Shown here in pieces: positions 1 through 8,788 of a stretch of 15,005 nucleotides of DNA; position 1 is the stretch's first letter; every line of letters starts with the position of its first letter. The position numbers and the translations under genes are program-made. The notes below the pieces were generated by a model. It had not been told where the DNA came from. It saw nothing but the letters and a program-made list of their open reading frames with translations, and ran no database searches. Source of the stretch: a virus; the UHGV virus genome UHGV-2053560, one strand, 5' to 3'.

Positions 1-1194
1 ATGATCACCGACACAAAGCTCAGGAAGGCGCTCGGCAAGAAAAGAGATGATATCGAGATTATTTCTGATTCGCACGGGCTCAACGCCAGAATCAGCCAGG
101 CCGGAAAAATATCATTTTTCTATCGGTATCGCTGGGCCGGTAAAGCGGTAAAACTCAATGTTGGTGATTATCCTGCAATGAGTATCACCCAGGCAAGAGA
201 GCGTCGCCAACAATTCAGAAACTGGTTAACTGAGGGACTGGATCCGCGAGAGCAGGTGAAGCTGGATAAGCAGACCCGACAGGAAGCGATGTCCGTTGCC
301 GAAGCGTTCAATTACTGGATTGAAAGGCACTGTATCGCTAACGGGCTAGTTAAAGTCGATTACTATCGCCAGGTGTTTGAGAAACATATCGCCGAACCGA
401 TGAAGAATGTCAAAGTCGATAACACAGCGAAAATGCACTGGATCAACGTCTTCGATTCTATAGAAAGCAGGGTGATGGCTCATTACATGCTTTCGCTGTG
501 CAAACGGGCGTTTAGGTTCTGCGTTAACAGAAGTGTGATCGCCTCAAACCCACTCGAGGGATTACTGCCATCTGATGTCGGGCAAAAGCCTAAAAAGAGA
601 ACTCGCAGGATGGACGATGACGATCTGCGCAAAATCTATCAGTGGTTGAAAAGCCATATGTCGATAGAGTCCGTTTTCCTGGTGAAATTTATTATGCTTA
701 CCGGATGCCGTACGGCTGAGATTCGACTTAGTGAGAGATCATGGTTTCGATTGGATGATAATGAGTGGGTCGTGCCTGCGGGCAGTTATAAAACTCGGGT
801 ACATATTAGAAGGGGACTCTCAGACGCCGCCGTTAACCTGGTCAGAAATCACCTCAAGAAAATAAACACCAATCACCTGGTGACTTCACAACGTAAAATT
901 GATGGCGGGATCAAAGATTCGCCCGTTCATTCACCTGTGGCATCCAATTACGCCCGTTCTATTTGGAATGGAACAGGTATGGCAGAGTGGTCGCTTCATG
1001 ATATGAGGCGGACGATAGCCACAAATCTCTCTGAGTTAGGTTGCCCGCCGCACGTAATTGAAAAGCTGCTCGGGCATCAGATGGTGGGGGTTATGGCGCA
1101 TTACAACCTTCATGACTATATCGATGATCAGAAACACTGGCTCCGCGTTTGGCAGAGCCATCTTGAAGAGATCATCGGAGAGCCCTTCAGTTAA
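1..1194 (+). CDS. int: Tyrosine-type site-specific integrase (phage integrase family, P4/CP4-57-like)
   Basis: 397-aa ORF starting at window base 1. N-terminal arm-type region ([10 protein letters not shown]...VGDYP), C-terminal catalytic-like motifs [17 protein letters not shown] and MAHY (candidate catalytic Tyr). Lies at the prophage edge, convergent with an excisionase-like gene. Confidence 0.85.
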
Positions 1195-1388
1195 TTTATC
1201 TTCTTTTTATCCTCCCACTCTTTGATTGACTCAGAGCGCCAGCGGTTAGGGTTGCCGGGCCAGTCAGGGGGTGGGAACGGGCATACGAAGCCCCGAGGCA
1301 TTGTGTCTGCACTTTGCCATGACCAAAGGGTTTTGCGTGAAATTTTGTAGCGACTGGTCAGGTCTGACGTTACCAAAATATCATCCAT
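1191..1388 (-). CDS. xis: AlpA-family excisionase / small DNA-binding protein
   Basis: 65-aa product from ATG at 1388 preceded by GGAGAG (the ORF track extends it to a TTG at 1433). C-terminal [10 protein letters not shown] resembles the AlpA/Xis winged-helix signature. Convergent with int; the TTAA at 1191-1194 supplies the stop codon of both genes. Confidence 0.65.
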
Positions 1389-1429
1389 AGCTCTCTCCAG
1401 TTGCCCGTTCGGGCCATTCAAAATCTTTT

Positions 1430-1813
1430 TCAACCAACCTGCCCGGCCAGGGAGCGGAGACGGCGCATGCCGGTCATCGCTGTGGCCACGTAGCTCGCCT
1501 TTCGGTTCACCACCTCCACCCAGACTTTCACGCCTTCAACCTTCACCGTATAAGTCTCTTTCATCTTGCTTCGCCCATAGTCGCCATATGTTTGCAAGTG
1601 AGCTGCCAGCGCGATGTCGCATGCTTGGCGAGCTAAAGGTGATTGCTTACTTCCTCGATTGATCAGTCGCATATAATCTCCTTGAGGGAGGGTTACCCCT
1701 CCCGGTCTCGTCAGGCCACGTATTCCGGTTTCATTTCCGCGAGCTGTTTTGACCGTGTGTGATTTATTCCCGCAGCGGCATTTGTTGAGCCAGTCAATAG
1801 TGAAAGTTTTCAT
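1430..1813 (-). CDS. Hypothetical protein (127 aa), early-left accessory gene
   Basis: ATG at 1813 overlaps the stop of the upstream gene (ATGA coupling). Non-repetitive protein-like composition; no family recognised by eye. Confidence 0.5.
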   Translation of the reverse strand: MKTFTIDWLNKCRCGNKSHTVKTARGNETGIRGLTRPGGVTLPQGDYMRLINRGSKQSPLARQACDIALAAHLQTYGDYGRSKMKETYTVKVEGVKVWVEVVNRKASYVATAMTGMRRLRSLAGQVG

Positions 1814-2484
1814 GATGCCTCTCCTTTACCTGCTTCGGTGACGTTTATTCCAGCGTTGTGCAGTGCCTCAAGAACCTGATGCTGCCTGTAAACCATTTCA
1901 GTGTGGTAAGGCTCGTCAAAATCGACGCGATGCAACATGCTATAGCATTGCGGAAGCACAACCTCCCGCAACTCCAGCTCAGCAATGCGCTTCTCTGCGG
2001 CTTCCAGCTTCTCGCGCATATCGTCAACGTACTCGACCAGAGATCCGCCAGCAGGAATTTCGCATTCCTCGACCAGTTGGAAGTAGATATCAGCTGCGGC
2101 CCGTGTGTTGCTATGCCTAGCGTCGCCCATCTCACCTTCACGAAGAGCATCGCGTTCGGCGGTAAGATTGGCTATTTTGCTGTCTTTGCCTTCCAGCTCA
2201 ACGCGCAGCCTCCCAACCGTAAGCGCAATATCCTCGTTCTCCTGGTCGCGGCGTTTGATGTATTGCTGGTTTCTTTCCAGTTCATCCAGTAGTGCCAAAG
2301 CAACCTTTGGATTAAAGGCAGCAATAAATTCAGCGTTGTTTTTCAGAACGTGTTGCGCAATGGCTTGGCTACTTAGTCGGACCTCATAACCACGTGCGCC
2401 ACGGTGTGGTTTATATGAGTCCCAGTCTCCCCACGTTGCATTTTCCGCCGCCTCACGCAGTGCCTGATGGTTAATCTCGCTCAT
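1810..2484 (-). CDS. Ea22-like coiled-coil protein
   Basis: 224-aa ORF. N-terminus MSEINHQALREAAENATWGDW resembles the conserved start of prophage ead/Ea22-like proteins as I recall them; central coiled-coil-like heptads (LEAAEKRIAELELRE). Position between the recombination genes and xis matches lambda ea22. Confidence 0.55.
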   Translation of the reverse strand: MSEINHQALREAAENATWGDWDSYKPHRGARGYEVRLSSQAIAQHVLKNNAEFIAAFNPKVALALLDELERNQQYIKRRDQENEDIALTVGRLRVELEGKDSKIANLTAERDALREGEMGDARHSNTRAAADIYFQLVEECEIPAGGSLVEYVDDMREKLEAAEKRIAELELREVVLPQCYSMLHRVDFDEPYHTEMVYRQHQVLEALHNAGINVTEAGKGEAS

Positions 2485-2485
2485 G

Positions 2486-2785
2486 TCACATCACCCTGAA
2501 TCCGTTGCATTTACGTAAAAAATCGCAGATATAGCCCTTCATTTTTTCGTGCCAATCTCGATCATTCCCATTGCACCAACCATCAGGTGGAGTCCAGTTT
2601 TCTATCAGAGCAGCCATTTTCTTTGCTTTTGCAGGAGTAGCTGTTGCGGTATCGCAGTAATGACGAGTGTCAACCAACGCATCCATACCATCGATATCAA
2701 GTACGCAAAACCATGTGTGATTCGGCATTCCAACAGATGGTATTTGTTGCCCACGTCGACGTTTATCAATAAGACATACACTCAC
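2486..2785 (-). CDS. Hypothetical protein (99 aa)
   Basis: ORF-track start at 2785 is a GTG overlapping the upstream stop (GTGA); an in-frame ATG at 2728 is an alternative. Cys/Trp-containing C-terminus; family not recognised. Confidence 0.45.
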
Positions 2786-2967
2786 TGCTTGCCTCCTTTG
2801 CGCAACATCGCATTCAGATATTTGTTGTCATTAACAGAACCGAAACTCTTTCTCTTAAGCAATTCCTCTCTCGATGGCATTGGCTTTACGCGTTGGCGAA
2901 TAATCATTTCTGCCGGAAGAATTCCTGGATTGTATGCAAGTCCTCTCATGGTAAATTCCTCAGTCAT
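2782..2967 (-). CDS. Hypothetical small protein (61 aa)
   Basis: In-frame ATG at 2967 lies inside AATGACTGA, overlapping the stop of the upstream 97-aa gene (translational coupling). The ORF-track N-terminal extension to 3099 would overlap that gene by 140 nt and is rejected. Confidence 0.4.
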
Positions 2968-3253
2968 TACTGATAGCGCCATAGCGTGAGCGGTAATTAC
3001 GCAGGCGCGGGTCAATTTCAGGGAAGTGGGTATATGTGGCTTTGCGGAATGGTCGGATTGATGTCTGGTAAATTCGCTCGCGTTCTTCTTTCTCTGCAAG
3101 CCATATACAATGGCGAAATTCCTTTTCCTCTTTCGTTTCCTGCGGTAGCGACATTATCAGGTCGTAGTTTTTTCTGAATTTATCCAGCACCTCCGATACG
3201 GAATTGCCGGAACAGCGGCGCGGGTCATCCGCACCATACAGAGGCGCTGGCAT
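2960..3253 (-). CDS. Hypothetical protein (97 aa)
   Basis: ATG at 3253 preceded by AGGAGA; charged, helical-looking protein; first gene after ssb in the leftward operon. Confidence 0.55.
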
Positions 3254-3266
3254 GATTTTCTCCTGA

Positions 3267-3773
3267 TTAAATTGCGTGAATAGCGTGACGAGGGAAGGGG
3301 AGAGTTACTGGTGCAAAGGGTATATCGTCGTCAAAATCCATCGGAGGTTCGTTGTGTTGTGCTGGTGATGATTGCTGCTGTGGCTTCTGTGATTGCCTGC
3401 TGGCTGCTTGTTGTTTGCTGTCGCCAATGCCGCCAAGCATTTGCATCACGCCATTAATTCCGACATGAACCTCGGTTGTGTAACGGTCTTGTCCTGACTG
3501 GTCTTTCCACTTTCTGGTTCTCAGCATTCCCTCGAAATAAATCTGATCACCTTTTTTCACATACTGCCCCACGACCTCAGCCAGTTTCCCGGATACAGCA
3601 ACACGATGCCATTCAGTCAATTCCTTTTGCTCGCCAGTATTTTTATCTCGCCATTGTTCTGACGTGGCTATTGTCAGGTTAGCGAACGCTGTTCCTGATG
3701 GTGAGTATCGAACTTCCGGGTCTTGTCCTACCCGACCAAGGATAATCACCTTATTTACGCCTCTGCTTGCCAT
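3267..3773 (-). CDS. ssb: Single-stranded DNA-binding protein (SSB), with a 15-aa tail after the canonical DDDIPF
   Basis: N-terminal OB-fold signature [23 protein letters not shown], Gln/Pro-rich linker, acidic tip [10 protein letters not shown], then a further [15 protein letters not shown] before the TAA at 3267-3269. Confidence 0.9.
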
Positions 3774-4481
3774 TTATGCCGCCTGTTTTAGTTCGTTAAC
3801 TCTGATGTTCATTACCTGAACGCATTTAGCCTGCGCCTCCTCGTTGCCAGCCATTAATTGCCAGTCACGCTGATAACGCTCGATGAGTTTTTTCTTGTCA
3901 GTTTCTGTTGATGCATAATCGCTGAAGTCTTTCAGGATTTGTTCGCAGTCAACCGATGGAGATTTCTGGTTGGTATTTTCTGGTGATGGTTTGTTATCTG
4001 ATGCTGGGATTGCCCATCCCGGCAGCGATGGAGGGAGCCAGTAAAATCCTGTTCCATCCTTGAGTTTTGCCCTGTGCCATCCCTGCTTTTTATCGAGAGA
4101 TGTTTGTGCGAAACCTTCCTCAAGGTTATACAGATACCGACCGATTCCCCACTGAACGGCAGCGCGCTTCATTGCACCGGAACGACCACCTTTGACGGCT
4201 TCTACCTGCGTGTTTTCAGCAGCATCCCATTTGGTTACCCATTCGGAATCAATCTTGATTGATATGCCGCATTCAACTCCGCCGTTGTTGGGAATATCGC
4301 GGTATTCATTGCGCCATCCTGCTTTGCCGCAAACATCGTCCAGGCGCTTCATGATTGCCCGGTTCGTGACATAAGCCAGCACCATAGCCCACACCTTGCC
4401 ATCGCGTGTTTTACCGCTTTGCTGTATTCGCCATTCGATATCTTCAGGGCTGAATGGCTCATCGAATTTATTCAAATCCAT
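3774..4481 (-). CDS. Rad52/Rad22-family single-strand annealing protein (phage recombinase, Sak-like)
   Basis: 235 aa. Conserved core resembling Rad52_Rad22 (WRNEYRD...GGVECGISIKIDSEWVTKWD...KGGRSGAMKRAAVQWGIGRYLYNL). Its stop (3774-3776) abuts the ssb start (3773). Confidence 0.7.
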   Translation of the reverse strand: MDLNKFDEPFSPEDIEWRIQQSGKTRDGKVWAMVLAYVTNRAIMKRLDDVCGKAGWRNEYRDIPNNGGVECGISIKIDSEWVTKWDAAENTQVEAVKGGRSGAMKRAAVQWGIGRYLYNLEEGFAQTSLDKKQGWHRAKLKDGTGFYWLPPSLPGWAIPASDNKPSPENTNQKSPSVDCEQILKDFSDYASTETDKKKLIERYQRDWQLMAGNEEAQAKCVQVMNIRVNELKQAA

Positions 4482-4489
4482 AATTCACC

Positions 4490-4660
4490 TCAGAATGGAC
4501 ATGGCCCAAGGAAATAACGCTGATTTAATACTTCAGTCTTTGCCGCATTCAAAAATACGCGAACACCTTCACGATCTCCCTTCTGGCGATACATTAACGC
4601 CTGCTGCGTGTACATGCGCCTCTGTAACTTGCTCTCCTTCACTGTGGTTGCAAGTGACAT
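4490..4660 (-). CDS. Small hypothetical protein (56 aa)
   Basis: ATG at 4660 preceded by GAAGGAGA at good spacing; product MSLATTVKESKLQRRMYTQQALMYRQKGDREGVRVFLNAAKTEVLNQRYFLGPCPF. Below the 60-aa ORF-track cutoff, found by manual translation. Confidence 0.35.
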   Translation of the reverse strand: MSLATTVKESKLQRRMYTQQALMYRQKGDREGVRVFLNAAKTEVLNQRYFLGPCPF

Positions 4661-5872: not shown

Positions 5873-6205
5873 TCAATCGTAATAAGCTGGAATTGATTTT
5901 CCGCGTTGCTTCTGGCGGCCTGAGCATGTCACACCCATTTCACTGCGTGGCTTGCTGTACCATGTGCGCTGATTCTTGCGCTCAATACGTTGCAGGTTGC
6001 TTTCAATCTGTTCGTGGTATTCAGCCAGCACCGTAAGGTCTATCGGATTCAGTGCGCTTTCTACTCGTGATTTCGGTTTGCGATTCAGCGAGAGAATAGG
6101 GCGGTTAACTGGTTTTGCGCTTACCCCAACCAACAGGGGATTTGCTGCTTTCCATTGAGCCTGTTTCTCTGCGCGACGTTCGCGGCGGCGTGTTTGTGCA
6201 TCCAT
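5873..6205 (-). CDS. N: Antitermination protein N
   Basis: Product from ATG at 6205 begins MDAQTRRRERRAEKQAQWKAANPLLVGV, the arginine-rich motif of lambda N as I recall it. SD AGGAG upstream; nutL and pL lie immediately upstream on the same strand. Confidence 0.9.
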   Translation of the reverse strand: MDAQTRRRERRAEKQAQWKAANPLLVGVSAKPVNRPILSLNRKPKSRVESALNPIDLTVLAEYHEQIESNLQRIERKNQRTWYSKPRSEMGVTCSGRQKQRGKSIPAYYD

Positions 6206-6364
6206 CTGGATTCTCCTGTCAGTTAGCTTTGGTGGTGTGTGGCAGTTGTAGTCCTGAACGAAAACCCCCCGCGATTGGCACATTGGCAGCTAATCCGGAA
6301 TCGCACTTCCGGCCAATGCTTCGTTTCGTATCACACACCCCAAAGCCTTCTGCTTTGAATGCTG

Positions 6365-6395
6365 CCCTTCTTCAGGGCTTAATTTTTAAGAGCGT
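6365..6395 (-). promoter_or_regulatory. nutL (boxB hairpin and boxA)
   Basis: Minus-strand GCCCTGAAGAAGGGC (lambda nutL boxB) at 6365-6379 and CGCTCTTAA (boxA) at 6387-6395, between pL and N. Confidence 0.8.
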
Positions 6396-6434
6396 CACCT
6401 TCATGGTGGTCAGTGCGTCCTGCTGATGCGCTCA

Positions 6435-6497
6435 GTATCACCGCCAGTGGTATTTATGTCAACACCGCCAGAGATAATTTATCACCGCAGATGGTTA
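6435..6497 (-). promoter_or_regulatory. pL promoter with operators oL1, oL2, oL3
   Basis: TATCACCGCCAGTGGTA (6437-6453), CAACACCGCCAGAGATA (6461-6477) and TATCACCGCAGATGGTT (6481-6497) match lambda oL1-oL3 as recalled. Minus-strand TTGACA (-35) and GATACT (-10) overlap them. Confidence 0.85.
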
Positions 6498-6640
6498 TCT
6501 GTATGTTTTTTATATGAATTTATTTTTTGCAGGGGGGCATTGTTTGGTAGGTGAGAGATCTGAATTGCTATGTTTAGTGAGTTGTATCTATTTATTTTTC
6601 AATAAATACAATTGGTTATGTGTTTTGGGGGCGATCGTGA

Positions 6641-6669
6641 GGCAAAGAAAACCCGGCGCTGAGGCCGGG
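6641..6669 (-). terminator. Rho-independent terminator immediately after rexB (tIMM-like)
   Basis: Stem CCCGGC (6652-6657) / GCCGGG (6664-6669), loop GCTGAG, followed on the minus strand by TTTTCTTTG. Confidence 0.6.
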
Positions 6670-7104
6670 TTATTCTTGTTCTCTGGTCAAATTATATAGT
6701 TGGAAAACAAGGATGCATATATGAATGAACGATGCAGAGGCAATGCCGATGGCGATAGTGGGTATCATGTAGCCGCTTATGCTGGAAAGAAGCAATAACC
6801 CGCAGAAAAACAAAGCTCCAAGCTCAACAAAACTAAGGGCATAGACAATAACTACCGATGTCATATACCCATACTCTCTAATCTTGGCCAGTCGGCGCGT
6901 TCTGCTTCCGATTAGAAACGTCAAGGCAGCAATCAGGATTGCAATCATGGTTCCTGCATATGATGACAATGTCGCCCCAAGACCATCTCTATGAGCTGAA
7001 AAAGAAACACCAGGAATGTAGTGGCGGAAAAGGAGATAGCAAATGCTTACGATAACGTAAGGAATTATTACTATGTAAACACCAGGCATGATTCTGTTCC
7101 GCAT
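6670..7104 (-). CDS. rexB: RexB, membrane component of the Rex abortive-infection/exclusion system
   Basis: 144 aa, multiple hydrophobic helices, directly downstream of rexA in the cI transcript. Size, position and sequence agree with lambda RexB as I recall it. Confidence 0.9.
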   Translation of the reverse strand: MRNRIMPGVYIVIIPYVIVSICYLLFRHYIPGVSFSAHRDGLGATLSSYAGTMIAILIAALTFLIGSRTRRLAKIREYGYMTSVVIVYALSFVELGALFFCGLLLLSSISGYMIPTIAIGIASASFIHICILVFQLYNLTREQE

Positions 7105-7119
7105 AATTACTCCTGATAA

Positions 7120-7959
7120 TTAATCCTTAACTTTGCCCACCTGCCTTTTAAAACATTCCAGTATATCACTTTTCATTCTTGCGTAGCAATATGCCATCTC
7201 TTCAGCTATCTCAGCATTGGTGACCTTGTTCAGAGGCGCTGAGAGATGGCCTTTTTCTGATAGATAATGTTCTGTTAAAATATCTCCGGCCTCATCTTTT
7301 GCCCGCAGGCTAATGTCTGAAAATTGAGGTGACGGGTTAAAAATAATATCCTTGGCAACCTTTTTTATATCCCTTTTAAATTTTGGCTTAATGACTATAT
7401 CCAATGAGTCAAAAAGCTCCCCTTCAATATCTGTTGCCCCTAAGACCTTTAATATATCGCCAAATACAGGTAGCTTGGCTTCTACCTTCACCGTTGTTCG
7501 GCCGATGAAATGCATATGCATAACATCGTCTTTGGTGGTTCCCCTCATCAGTGGCTCTATCTGAACGCGCTCTCCACTGCTTAATGACATTCCTTTCCCG
7601 ATTAAAAAATCTGTCAGATCGGATGTGGTCGGCCCGAAAACAGTTCTGGCAAAACCAATGGTGTCGCCTTCAACAAACAAAAAAGATGGGAATCCCAATG
7701 ATTCGTCATCTGCGAGGCTGTTCTTAATATCTTCAACTGAAGCTTTAGAGCGATTTATCTTCTGAACCAGACTCTTGTCATTTGTTTTGGTAAAGAGAAA
7801 AGTTTTTCCATCGATTTTATGAATATACAAATAATTGGAGCCAACCTGCAGGTGATGATTATCAGCCAGCAGAGAATTAAGGAAAACAGACAGGTTTATT
7901 GAGCGCTTATCTTTCCCTTTATTTTTGCTGCGGTAAGTCGCATAAAAACCATTCTTCAT
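7120..7959 (-). CDS. rexA: RexA, sensor/activator component of the Rex exclusion system
   Basis: 279 aa, immediately downstream of cI on the same strand. Size, position and N-terminus (MKNGFYATYRSKNKGKDKRS) agree with lambda RexA as I recall it. Confidence 0.9.
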   Translation of the reverse strand: MKNGFYATYRSKNKGKDKRSINLSVFLNSLLADNHHLQVGSNYLYIHKIDGKTFLFTKTNDKSLVQKINRSKASVEDIKNSLADDESLGFPSFLFVEGDTIGFARTVFGPTTSDLTDFLIGKGMSLSSGERVQIEPLMRGTTKDDVMHMHFIGRTTVKVEAKLPVFGDILKVLGATDIEGELFDSLDIVIKPKFKRDIKKVAKDIIFNPSPQFSDISLRAKDEAGDILTEHYLSEKGHLSAPLNKVTNAEIAEEMAYCYARMKSDILECFKRQVGKVKD

Positions 7960-8071
7960 AATTCAATCCATTTACTATGTTATGTTCTGAGGGGAGTGAA
8001 AATTCCCCTAATTCGATGAAGATTCTTGCTCAATTGTTATCAGCTATGCGCCGACCAGAACACCTTGCCGA

Positions 8072-8788
<717 letters not shown>

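Follow-up and report, generated by a model that had tools for sequence, protein, structure and literature searches.

We examined a block of five leftward open reading frames (ORFs) at positions 1430-3253, on the minus strand, of the UHGV virus genome UHGV-2053560, a stretch of 15,005 nucleotides (nt) that is called the window below. The block is best read, with a probability of about 0.8, as the part of the early-left (pL) operon that lies farthest from its promoter in a mosaic lambdoid prophage, made up of independently exchangeable genes rather than one functional cassette. Its parts are abc2, which belongs to the neighbouring recombination module, three accessory genes (DUF2737, DUF7739 and an Ead/Ea22-domain gene), and a fusion artefact that sits atop a fourth, DUF4060. 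The end of a recombination module is followed by two or three freely reassorting accessory genes and a DUF4060-xis-int module of the phi80/HK225 type. Transcription would run from abc2 through DUF2737, DUF7739 and the Ead/Ea22-domain gene into the DUF4060-xis-int module. DUF7739 and the Ead/Ea22-domain gene are accessory genes such as occur in the P22 'ea' and lambda exo-xis regions. All the families are known ones and their mosaic arrangement is typical; a public assembly already contains the same block.

Composition and mosaic structure of the block

An earlier note on this DNA had described five leftward ORFs of 97, 61, 99, 224 and 127 amino acids (aa) between ssb and xis. The lengths are correct, and the stretch does lie between xis and the recombination genes in a lambdoid prophage. 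The ORFs run from 3253 to 2960 (97 aa), 2967 to 2782 (61 aa), 2785 to 2486 (99 aa, with a GTG start), 2484 to 1810 (224 aa) and 1813 to 1430 (127 aa). Only the Ea22-like protein had been thought recognisable, and this has to be revised: the remote-homology searches place all five products in catalogued Pfam families, one of which, Abc2, is well characterised. The 97-aa product is Abc2 and the three others match DUF2737, DUF7739 and DUF4060. The block is made of small accessory genes, and four of the products, all but Abc2, belong to families without an assigned mechanism. Literature searches found no publication discussing DUF2737, DUF7739 or DUF4060 and nothing functional for 'Ea22-like', an NCBIfam scan of the products gave nothing useful, and an Rfam scan of the whole window gave no match.

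The nearest relatives of the DNA change along its length. Positions 1-1743 match phages phi80, HK225 and mEp237 at 99.4-99.8%, and positions 2452-3773 match HK75 at 97.8%, with one extra gene in HK75. The Ea22-type gene is itself mosaic, as its distal two-thirds (1788-2297) match HK140/HF4s at 96.7% and the segment 2185-2560, which covers its first third and the end of DUF7739, matches a different set of phages. Coverage of 1191-3773 does not exceed 80% in any phage record or complete E. coli genome. An exact-protein look-up found contig WUOC01000030.1 (GCA_011318335.1), which is 99.7% identical to the window over 1-3265, ungapped.

Gene neighbours were counted in IMG/VR in the 80 best-matching loci per query family, which are close relatives and not phylogenetically independent. 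DUF2737 lies directly upstream of DUF7739 in 26 of the 80 DUF7739 loci, an Ea22-type gene lies directly downstream in 60 (these neighbours being 30-90% identical to the window's protein), and DUF4060 is found nowhere in any of the 80. DUF4060 is followed by at least three types of excisionase. The idea that the five genes are a co-inherited unit does not survive this synteny comparison, which shows the genes reassorting and the block spanning several exchange modules.

The 127-aa ORF as a crossover scar

Compared segment by segment with its relatives, the 127-aa ORF reads as a fusion artefact composed of 29 residues of a truncated zinc-ribbon-like protein, 18 residues from wrong-frame and spacer DNA, and a complete DUF4060 protein. 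The first 29 codons (MKTFTIDWLNKCRCGNKSHTVKTARGNET) consist of the start remnant of a zinc-ribbon-like/DUF551 gene (1735..1813, minus strand), identical to E. coli MB15 down to 1726, and the crossover segment 1726-1734. The ATG at 1813 overlaps the Ea22 stop (ATGA) and has an AGGAG ribosome site. In MB15 the counterpart ORF (2207-3088 of the retrieved stretch) encodes 293 aa, with a CxC...CxxC N-terminus followed by DUF551, and is likewise coupled to the stop of an Ea22-type gene; the full ORF scored below threshold against Zn_ribbon_CSL (15.1 bits, cut-off 29.2). The window keeps only the first CxC of the ribbon, and of the three Cys residues in the 127-aa ORF, C12 and C14 lie in this remnant. 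A Lar-type or zinc-ribbon family assignment of the remnant was considered and set aside, as there is no significant Pfam match and the four-Cys ribbon is incomplete. For the MB15 ORF, the RefSeq annotation starts at an internal Met and takes in only the DUF551 part, so that about 200 nt carry no annotation.

The recombination crossover lies at 1726..1734, where 9 bp (ATGAAACCG on the minus strand) are shared exactly by both parental sequence types. Base by base, identity to HK225 extends up to 1734, with 4 mismatches in 1..1743, and identity to MB15 extends down to 1726, with 5 mismatches in 1726..2297. Comparison with HK225 identifies codons 30-47 of the ORF (1673..1725, minus strand) as former non-coding or out-of-frame DNA. 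A recT remnant at 1734..1711 contains the last 8 codons and the stop; the recT stop of HK225 maps to 1711-1713, and the ending MKPEYVA-stop is identical in that frame. It is followed by a perfect, GC-rich hairpin, GGGAGGG-GTAA-CCCTCCC, with a 7-bp stem at 1703..1686 that is present in the minimum-free-energy fold, and then by AAGGAG at 1683..1678. Upstream sequence of the HK225 type is found in 31 of the 80 DUF4060 loci and is open for 32 codons in frame with no ATG.

The native DUF4060 gene (phi80 gp33 type) occupies 1430..1672 on the minus strand and encodes 80 aa. Pfam PF13269 covers residues 50-124 of the 127-aa ORF (E 8.7e-33, 112.8 bits, cut-off 21) and phrog_1852 begins at residue 48. 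The homologue clusters listed for DUF4060 are mostly 79-81 aa long, and the 127-aa form is found in one of them only (P0048, two members). In the 80 DUF4060 loci every upstream variant carries its own ribosome site and an ATG at the 80-aa start. The protein is strongly basic (isoelectric point (pI) 10.3), and its AlphaFold2 (AF2) model, with a predicted local distance difference test score (pLDDT) of 75, has one helix packed on a three-stranded sheet and no specific match.

A crossover at the 9-bp microhomology joined the upstream block to the DUF4060-xis-int module, leaving the 29 codons of the zinc-ribbon/DUF551 gene fused in frame to an intact DUF4060 with its own ribosome site. Because the contig of GCA_011318335.1 is 99.7% identical and ungapped, the fusion is real DNA and not an assembly error.

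Two side observations concern the 5' edge of DUF4060. The hairpin at 1686-1703 stands directly upstream of the DUF4060 ribosome site and occurs in 32 of the 80 DUF4060 loci, having been inherited with the HK225-type recT-DUF4060 spacer. It was rejected as a terminator, since it has no T-run and is absent from the pattern-scan calls; it might affect mRNA stability or the translation of DUF4060. Additionally, other DUF4060 homologues (P0071, P0161, P0165 and P0050) carry unrelated N-terminal extensions, including an Ea22 N-terminus, a DUF551-like and a helix-turn-helix-like sequence, so the 5' edge of the gene appears to be a recurrent recombination joint that makes fusion ORFs.

Junctions and expression signals

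The earlier note had placed an ATGA or GTGA overlap at every junction. Such overlaps are present at the 61/99 (GTGA) and 224/127 (ATGA) junctions and are not present at the other two. The 99/224 junction is TGA-c-ATG, with a 1-nt spacer and no overlap. At the 97/61 junction an overlap of 8 nt (ATGACTGA) arises only with ATG 2967, which has no Shine-Dalgarno sequence; from the conserved start, ATG 2949, the junction is a 10-nt spacer. The spacing between the genes of the block is therefore 10 nt or less. Tight packing extends upstream, where the TAA of the annealing-protein gene abuts the ATG of ssb and the ssb-abc2 spacer is 13 nt. It follows that ssb is not the boundary of a cassette, and the proposal that one starts after ssb has to be given up.

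The start of DUF7739 overlaps the preceding TGA in all 80 of its loci, and the Ea22-type start lies 1 nt past the DUF7739 stop in 60. As these motifs are kept in relatives, the tight spacing is real biology and not chance, but it is common to this phage region in general. The junction sequences are kept whatever the neighbour, both at the DUF2737 stop and DUF7739 start (an xTGA overlap) and after abc2 (a GAGGAA-N7-ATG linker), and conserved junction sequences of this kind are typical of mosaic boundaries in these phages. The short and overlapping junctions would then reflect the normal translational coupling of the region, and the conserved linkers also look like preferred recombination points.

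A pattern scan of the minus strand over 1430-3253 found no promoter- or terminator-like site. The likeliest reading is that one long leftward transcript from pL covers the block, presumably under N antitermination.

abc2, DUF2737 and the recombination module

The gene at 2960..3253 (minus strand) encodes anti-RecBCD protein 2, Abc2. Its 97-aa product matches Pfam PF11043 from end to end (E 6.2e-65, 215.9 bits, cut-off 25; residues 1-97 on profile positions 1-97) and phrog_656 (E 4e-55), is identical to P22 Abc2 at 92 of 97 residues (95%), and matches the Abc2 chain in the RecBCD complexes 8b1t and 8b1u of the PDB (E 2.8e-59). Abc2 engages the host protein PpiB through Pro68 (PMC9836394), and P68 can be read directly in the IRP motif of this protein. 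From the 95% identity to P22 Abc2 it is predicted that this Abc2 binds RecC and abolishes the response of RecBCD to Chi. By the mechanism described for P22, Abc2 would stop RecBCD from responding to Chi, probably passing its single-stranded DNA (ssDNA) product to the phage annealing protein (PMC9836394).

Upstream of abc2, on the same strand, are ssb (3267..3773, 168 aa; Pfam SSB, E 1.6e-36), the middle gene of the recombination module, and a gene for a Rad52/Erf-like annealing protein (3774..4481; Rad52_Rad22, E 5e-26). The proteins of the module also match PHROG 44 and 1097, and the order annealing protein-ssb-abc2 is the same as in phage HK75. Such a set constitutes a recombination (Rec) module of the 'HK75 functional type' in a scheme that covers 27 lambdoid phages (PMC12315714). 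Since a Rad52-like annealing protein, SSB and Abc2 together form a module of this type, abc2 belongs with the genes upstream of the block.

The DUF2737 gene (P22 orf56/HK97 gp38 type; 2782..2949, minus strand) encodes 55 aa. Pfam PF10930 (E 2.6e-30, 104.5 bits, cut-off 25) and phrog_1117 both begin at residue 7 of the 61-aa ORF, and the protein is 75% identical to P22 orf56 starting from MRGLAYNP. GAGGAA stands 7 nt before ATG 2949, and no ribosome site precedes ATG 2967. The same start is used in the annotations of P22 orf56, HK75, HK140 and MB15 and in the gene call on WUOC01000030.1, and the extension is missing where the upstream gene differs. In an alignment with P22, HK75, HK140, MB15 and OkiPb01684 the family form is about 54-56 aa long from MRGLAYNP, which the 61-aa form is not. 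The conserved start of DUF2737 is ATG 2949, 18 nt inside the 61-aa ORF.

It is conceivable, and in our view rather unlikely, that abc2 and DUF2737 are a two-gene functional pair in which DUF2737 acts as an accessory factor of the Abc2/RecBCD hijack, for example by bridging to the annealing protein or to DNA. DUF2737 follows abc2 directly in 62 of the 80 abc2 loci and within about 300 nt in a further 17 (79/80 in total), and in all six species-representative genomes it lies downstream of abc2, while the upstream neighbour of abc2 varies. The pair is also found in P22, HK75 and MB15, and the DUF2737 protein is strongly basic (pI 10.7). Furthermore, purified Abc2 alone barely alters the activities of RecBCD in vitro, and the P22 system needs extra, uncharacterised factors (PMC9836394). 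Against the pair, DUF2737 also occurs without abc2. Counted from the side of DUF2737, abc2 lies directly upstream in 60 of the 80 loci and within about 300 nt upstream in a further 11, and the remaining 9 have no abc2. DUF2737 also stands behind a Mu Gam/RecT module in HK140 and behind DUF5405 in strain OkiPb01684. A DUF5405-type gene can also separate the two, and the sampled loci are close relatives, so that the linkage may reflect recent common descent. That DUF2737 is the missing accessory component of the Abc2 system, helping to redirect the ssDNA output of RecBCD to the phage annealing protein, we consider unlikely; if it were, the very small effect of Abc2 alone on purified RecBCD would be accounted for.

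The gene found between abc2 and DUF2737 in 17 of the 80 abc2 loci encodes about 95 aa (beginning MKTMKLNIDLGKYVITG) and is probably of the DUF5405 type known from E. coli genome annotations. It uses the GAGGAA-N7-ATG linker that normally starts DUF2737.

DUF7739 and the Ead/Ea22-domain protein

The DUF7739 gene (Sf6 gene 22-like; 2486..2785, minus strand) encodes 99 aa. Its GTG start overlaps the DUF2737 stop (GTGA) and has AAAGGAGG upstream; among the 80 relatives the start codon is at the same position as GTG in 62 and as ATG in 18. The product matches Pfam PF24881 over its whole length (E 8e-21, 74.9 bits, cut-off 27) and phrog_1239 over residues 1-99 (E 2.6e-55), and it has 47 homologue clusters, in Enterobacterales. 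The earlier note had pointed to several Cys and Trp residues in the 99-aa and 127-aa proteins. There are indeed six Cys in DUF7739 and three in the 127-aa ORF. An alignment of 22 DUF7739 homologues has 18 invariant columns, and C93 is the only one of the six Cys that is invariant, so DUF7739 contains no conserved Cys cluster and a zinc, redox or metal-cluster site is ruled out. A DNA mimic like DMP12 is also ruled out, as the protein is slightly basic (pI 8.25) and not acidic.

The Ead/Ea22-domain gene (1810..2484, minus strand) encodes 224 aa and was identified by Pfam PF13935 (residues 2-171, E 5.7e-28, 98.7 bits, cut-off 27). Over its central region the protein shares 42% identity with P22 EaD. 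Lambda Ea22 favours lysogeny, and its C-terminal domain has been solved (PMC10834534, PMC7093339). When the 224-aa protein was compared by phmmer with all PDB chain sequences, no match was obtained at E up to 1, and the C-terminal domain is therefore unlike that of lambda Ea22; with no relationship to the solved domain found by this search, the protein was not taken as lambda Ea22 proper. Several ORFs of 85-144 aa overlap the gene in other frames, for example at 1845-2150 (minus strand) and 1858-2292 (plus strand), and a 101-aa ORF within the gene stays open in MB15 too. Most likely these ORFs arise from the composition of the Ea22-type gene and are not genes themselves.

It could be proposed that DUF7739 and the downstream Ead/Ea22 protein act as a pair, DUF7739 being a small protein-binding inhibitor with an immunity-protein-like fold; it would modulate the coiled-coil Ea22-type protein or a host target, or itself be modulated by either. 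We find this quite unlikely. The AF2 model of DUF7739 (pLDDT 84.9) gives a weak suggestion of a small protein-binding inhibitor. A Foldseek search of the model against the PDB returned nothing with E below 1, and PDB sequence searches with single sequences (DUF7739 and the 127-aa ORF) and with profiles (DUF2737, DUF7739 and DUF4060) found no relatives. The pI of 8.25 is not that of an acidic protein, Ea22-type genes occur without DUF7739 in MB15, OkiPb01684 and HK140, unlike in the window, and the fixed gene order of the region may be historical.

One unit or exchangeable genes

The earlier note had taken the five genes as one co-translated functional unit, inherited and working together in host takeover, anti-defence or exclusion. 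This is very unlikely. The spacing of 10 nt or less, the lack of internal promoter- and terminator-like sites, and the recurrence of the whole block at 99.7% in one other assembly would fit a unit. However, the block spans at least three exchange modules and bears a crossover scar, the neighbours of each gene vary among relatives, with no DUF7739 locus carrying DUF4060, abc2 is functionally part of the upstream recombination module, and the tight packing runs on upstream of the block. Additionally, PADLOC models gave no match below E 0.001 among the five products; the sole match was a weak one of PbeC to the Ea22-type protein (E 0.0089, 12.8 bits), with none for the other four.

It is highly improbable that the 127-aa ORF represents a real new gene fusion in which DUF4060 gains a new property from the N-terminal extension. 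In its favour, the ribosome site of ATG 1813 is strong and this ATG overlaps the stop of Ea22, the frame stays open as far as the DUF4060 stop, the same fusion is found in a second assembly and other N-terminal DUF4060 fusions are known (P0071, P0161 and P0165). Against it, the extension consists of only half of a zinc ribbon, with one CxC knuckle, and of 18 residues drawn from a wrong-frame recT tail and from intergenic DNA that includes a hairpin, the 127-aa form is confined to one listed cluster where most are 79-81 aa, and the native ribosome site and start of DUF4060 are intact.

Several points weigh against reading the block as exchangeable genes at the end of a pL operon. The synteny counts are drawn from close relatives, 80 best loci per query, that are not phylogenetically independent. 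DUF2737, DUF7739, the Ea22-type protein and DUF4060 belong to families without an assigned function, and two or more of them may have a joint role. The 127-aa fusion may be made beside the 80-aa form, since ATG 1813 is preceded by a good ribosome site and coupled to the stop of Ea22. Control by pL and N is read from gene order. Finally, the identities of N, rexAB and cI are read from ORF sizes and one translation: at 5873-8785 of the window, to the right of the recombination genes, the sizes of the ORFs and a product beginning MDAQTRRRERRAEKQAQWKAANPLL, which resembles lambda N, look like lambda N, rexB, rexA and cI. That would make the phage imm-lambda-like, with integration of the phi80 type and an early region resembling that of HK75/HK97.

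Relation to known phages

The early-left order of P22 is erf-abc1-abc2-orf56-eaE...eaD...xis-int. The window resembles it in the abc2 product (95% identical) and orf56/DUF2737 (75%), in the identical 10-nt abc2-orf56 spacer, in a gene with an Ead domain further downstream (EaD, 42% over the core) and in the same leftward order towards xis. Unlike P22, it has no abc1, arf or erf, and its annealing protein is Rad52-like and accompanied by SSB; eaE, eaF, eaA, eaG and eaC are absent, with DUF7739 and DUF4060 in their place; and its int-xis pair is of the phi80 type and convergent.

HK75, with the order Erf-like annealing protein-ssb-abc2-DUF2737-HK97 gp37-like-Sf6 gene 22-like, shares with the window the 97.8% match over 2452-3773, the same annealing protein/SSB/Abc2 Rec module, DUF2737 and DUF7739. 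It differs in having an extra 160-aa gene between DUF2737 and DUF7739, in lacking the Ea22-type and DUF4060 genes, and in its int/xis. At the other end, phi80, HK225 and mEp237 share 99.4-99.8% over 1-1651/1743, including the convergent int/xis, the leftward terminator and DUF4060, and HK225 additionally shares the hairpin and the recT tail upstream of DUF4060. In these phages DUF4060 follows a dam pseudogene (phi80) or recT (HK225), whereas in the window it follows the Ea22/zinc-ribbon block.

As for lambda, the block was likened in the earlier note to the b2/ea region. The equivalents are lambda exo-xis and the P22 ea region, so this comparison is right for ea and wrong for b2, which sits beyond attP on the opposite side. 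Like lambda exo-xis, the block is placed between the recombination genes and xis; it is accessory, non-essential and transcribed early, and it encodes the Ead/Ea22 Pfam domain. Unlike lambda, the 224-aa protein has no sequence match to the C-terminal domain of Ea22, and orf61, orf63, orf60a and ea8.5 are absent from the window.

The prophage of WUOC01000030.1 shares all five ORFs with the window, the 127-aa chimera among them, as well as int, and it adjoins kch/cls/oppF-like genes. Unlike the window, it carries an extra 182-aa gene for a DnaQ-like (Rv2179c-like) 3'-5' exonuclease between ssb and abc2 (3996-4544 of the retrieved stretch). The two prophages thus differ by one gene of the Rec module, the window being of the HK75 type and the relative of the ES18 type in the published scheme (PMC12315714).

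Flanking genes

The gene for a 397-aa integrase of the phi80 type lies at 1..1194 on the plus strand, with 99.4-99.9% DNA identity to phi80, HK225 and mEp237. The xis gene, also of the phi80 type, lies at 1191..1388 on the minus strand and encodes 65 aa: phrog_1553 begins at residue 16 of an 80-aa ORF, phi80 xis is annotated as 65 aa, and GGAGAG precedes ATG 1388. The 80-aa form, which has a TTG start overlapping the preceding stop (TTGA), is probably spurious. int and xis converge with a 4-nt overlap, and a pattern scan found a leftward terminator-like hairpin at 1138..1160 (minus strand), inside the 3' end of int, where the phi80 annotation has a 'putative leftward transcription terminator'. 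Because of the convergent arrangement, int must have its own promoter left of the window.

Implications

As it stands, the finding matters little, as the block is an accessory region of the mosaic kind typical of lambdoid prophages. It does carry a caution for annotation, in that chains of overlapping ORFs at mosaic joints may hold fusion artefacts and over-extended starts; here the 127-aa, 61-aa and 80-aa (xis) ORFs are over-called starts or fusions. How P22-type phages co-opt RecBCD is still incompletely understood, and the near-constant pairing of abc2 and DUF2737, which could, on low odds, point to an accessory factor of the Abc2-RecBCD hijack, is a cheap and testable lead on this question.

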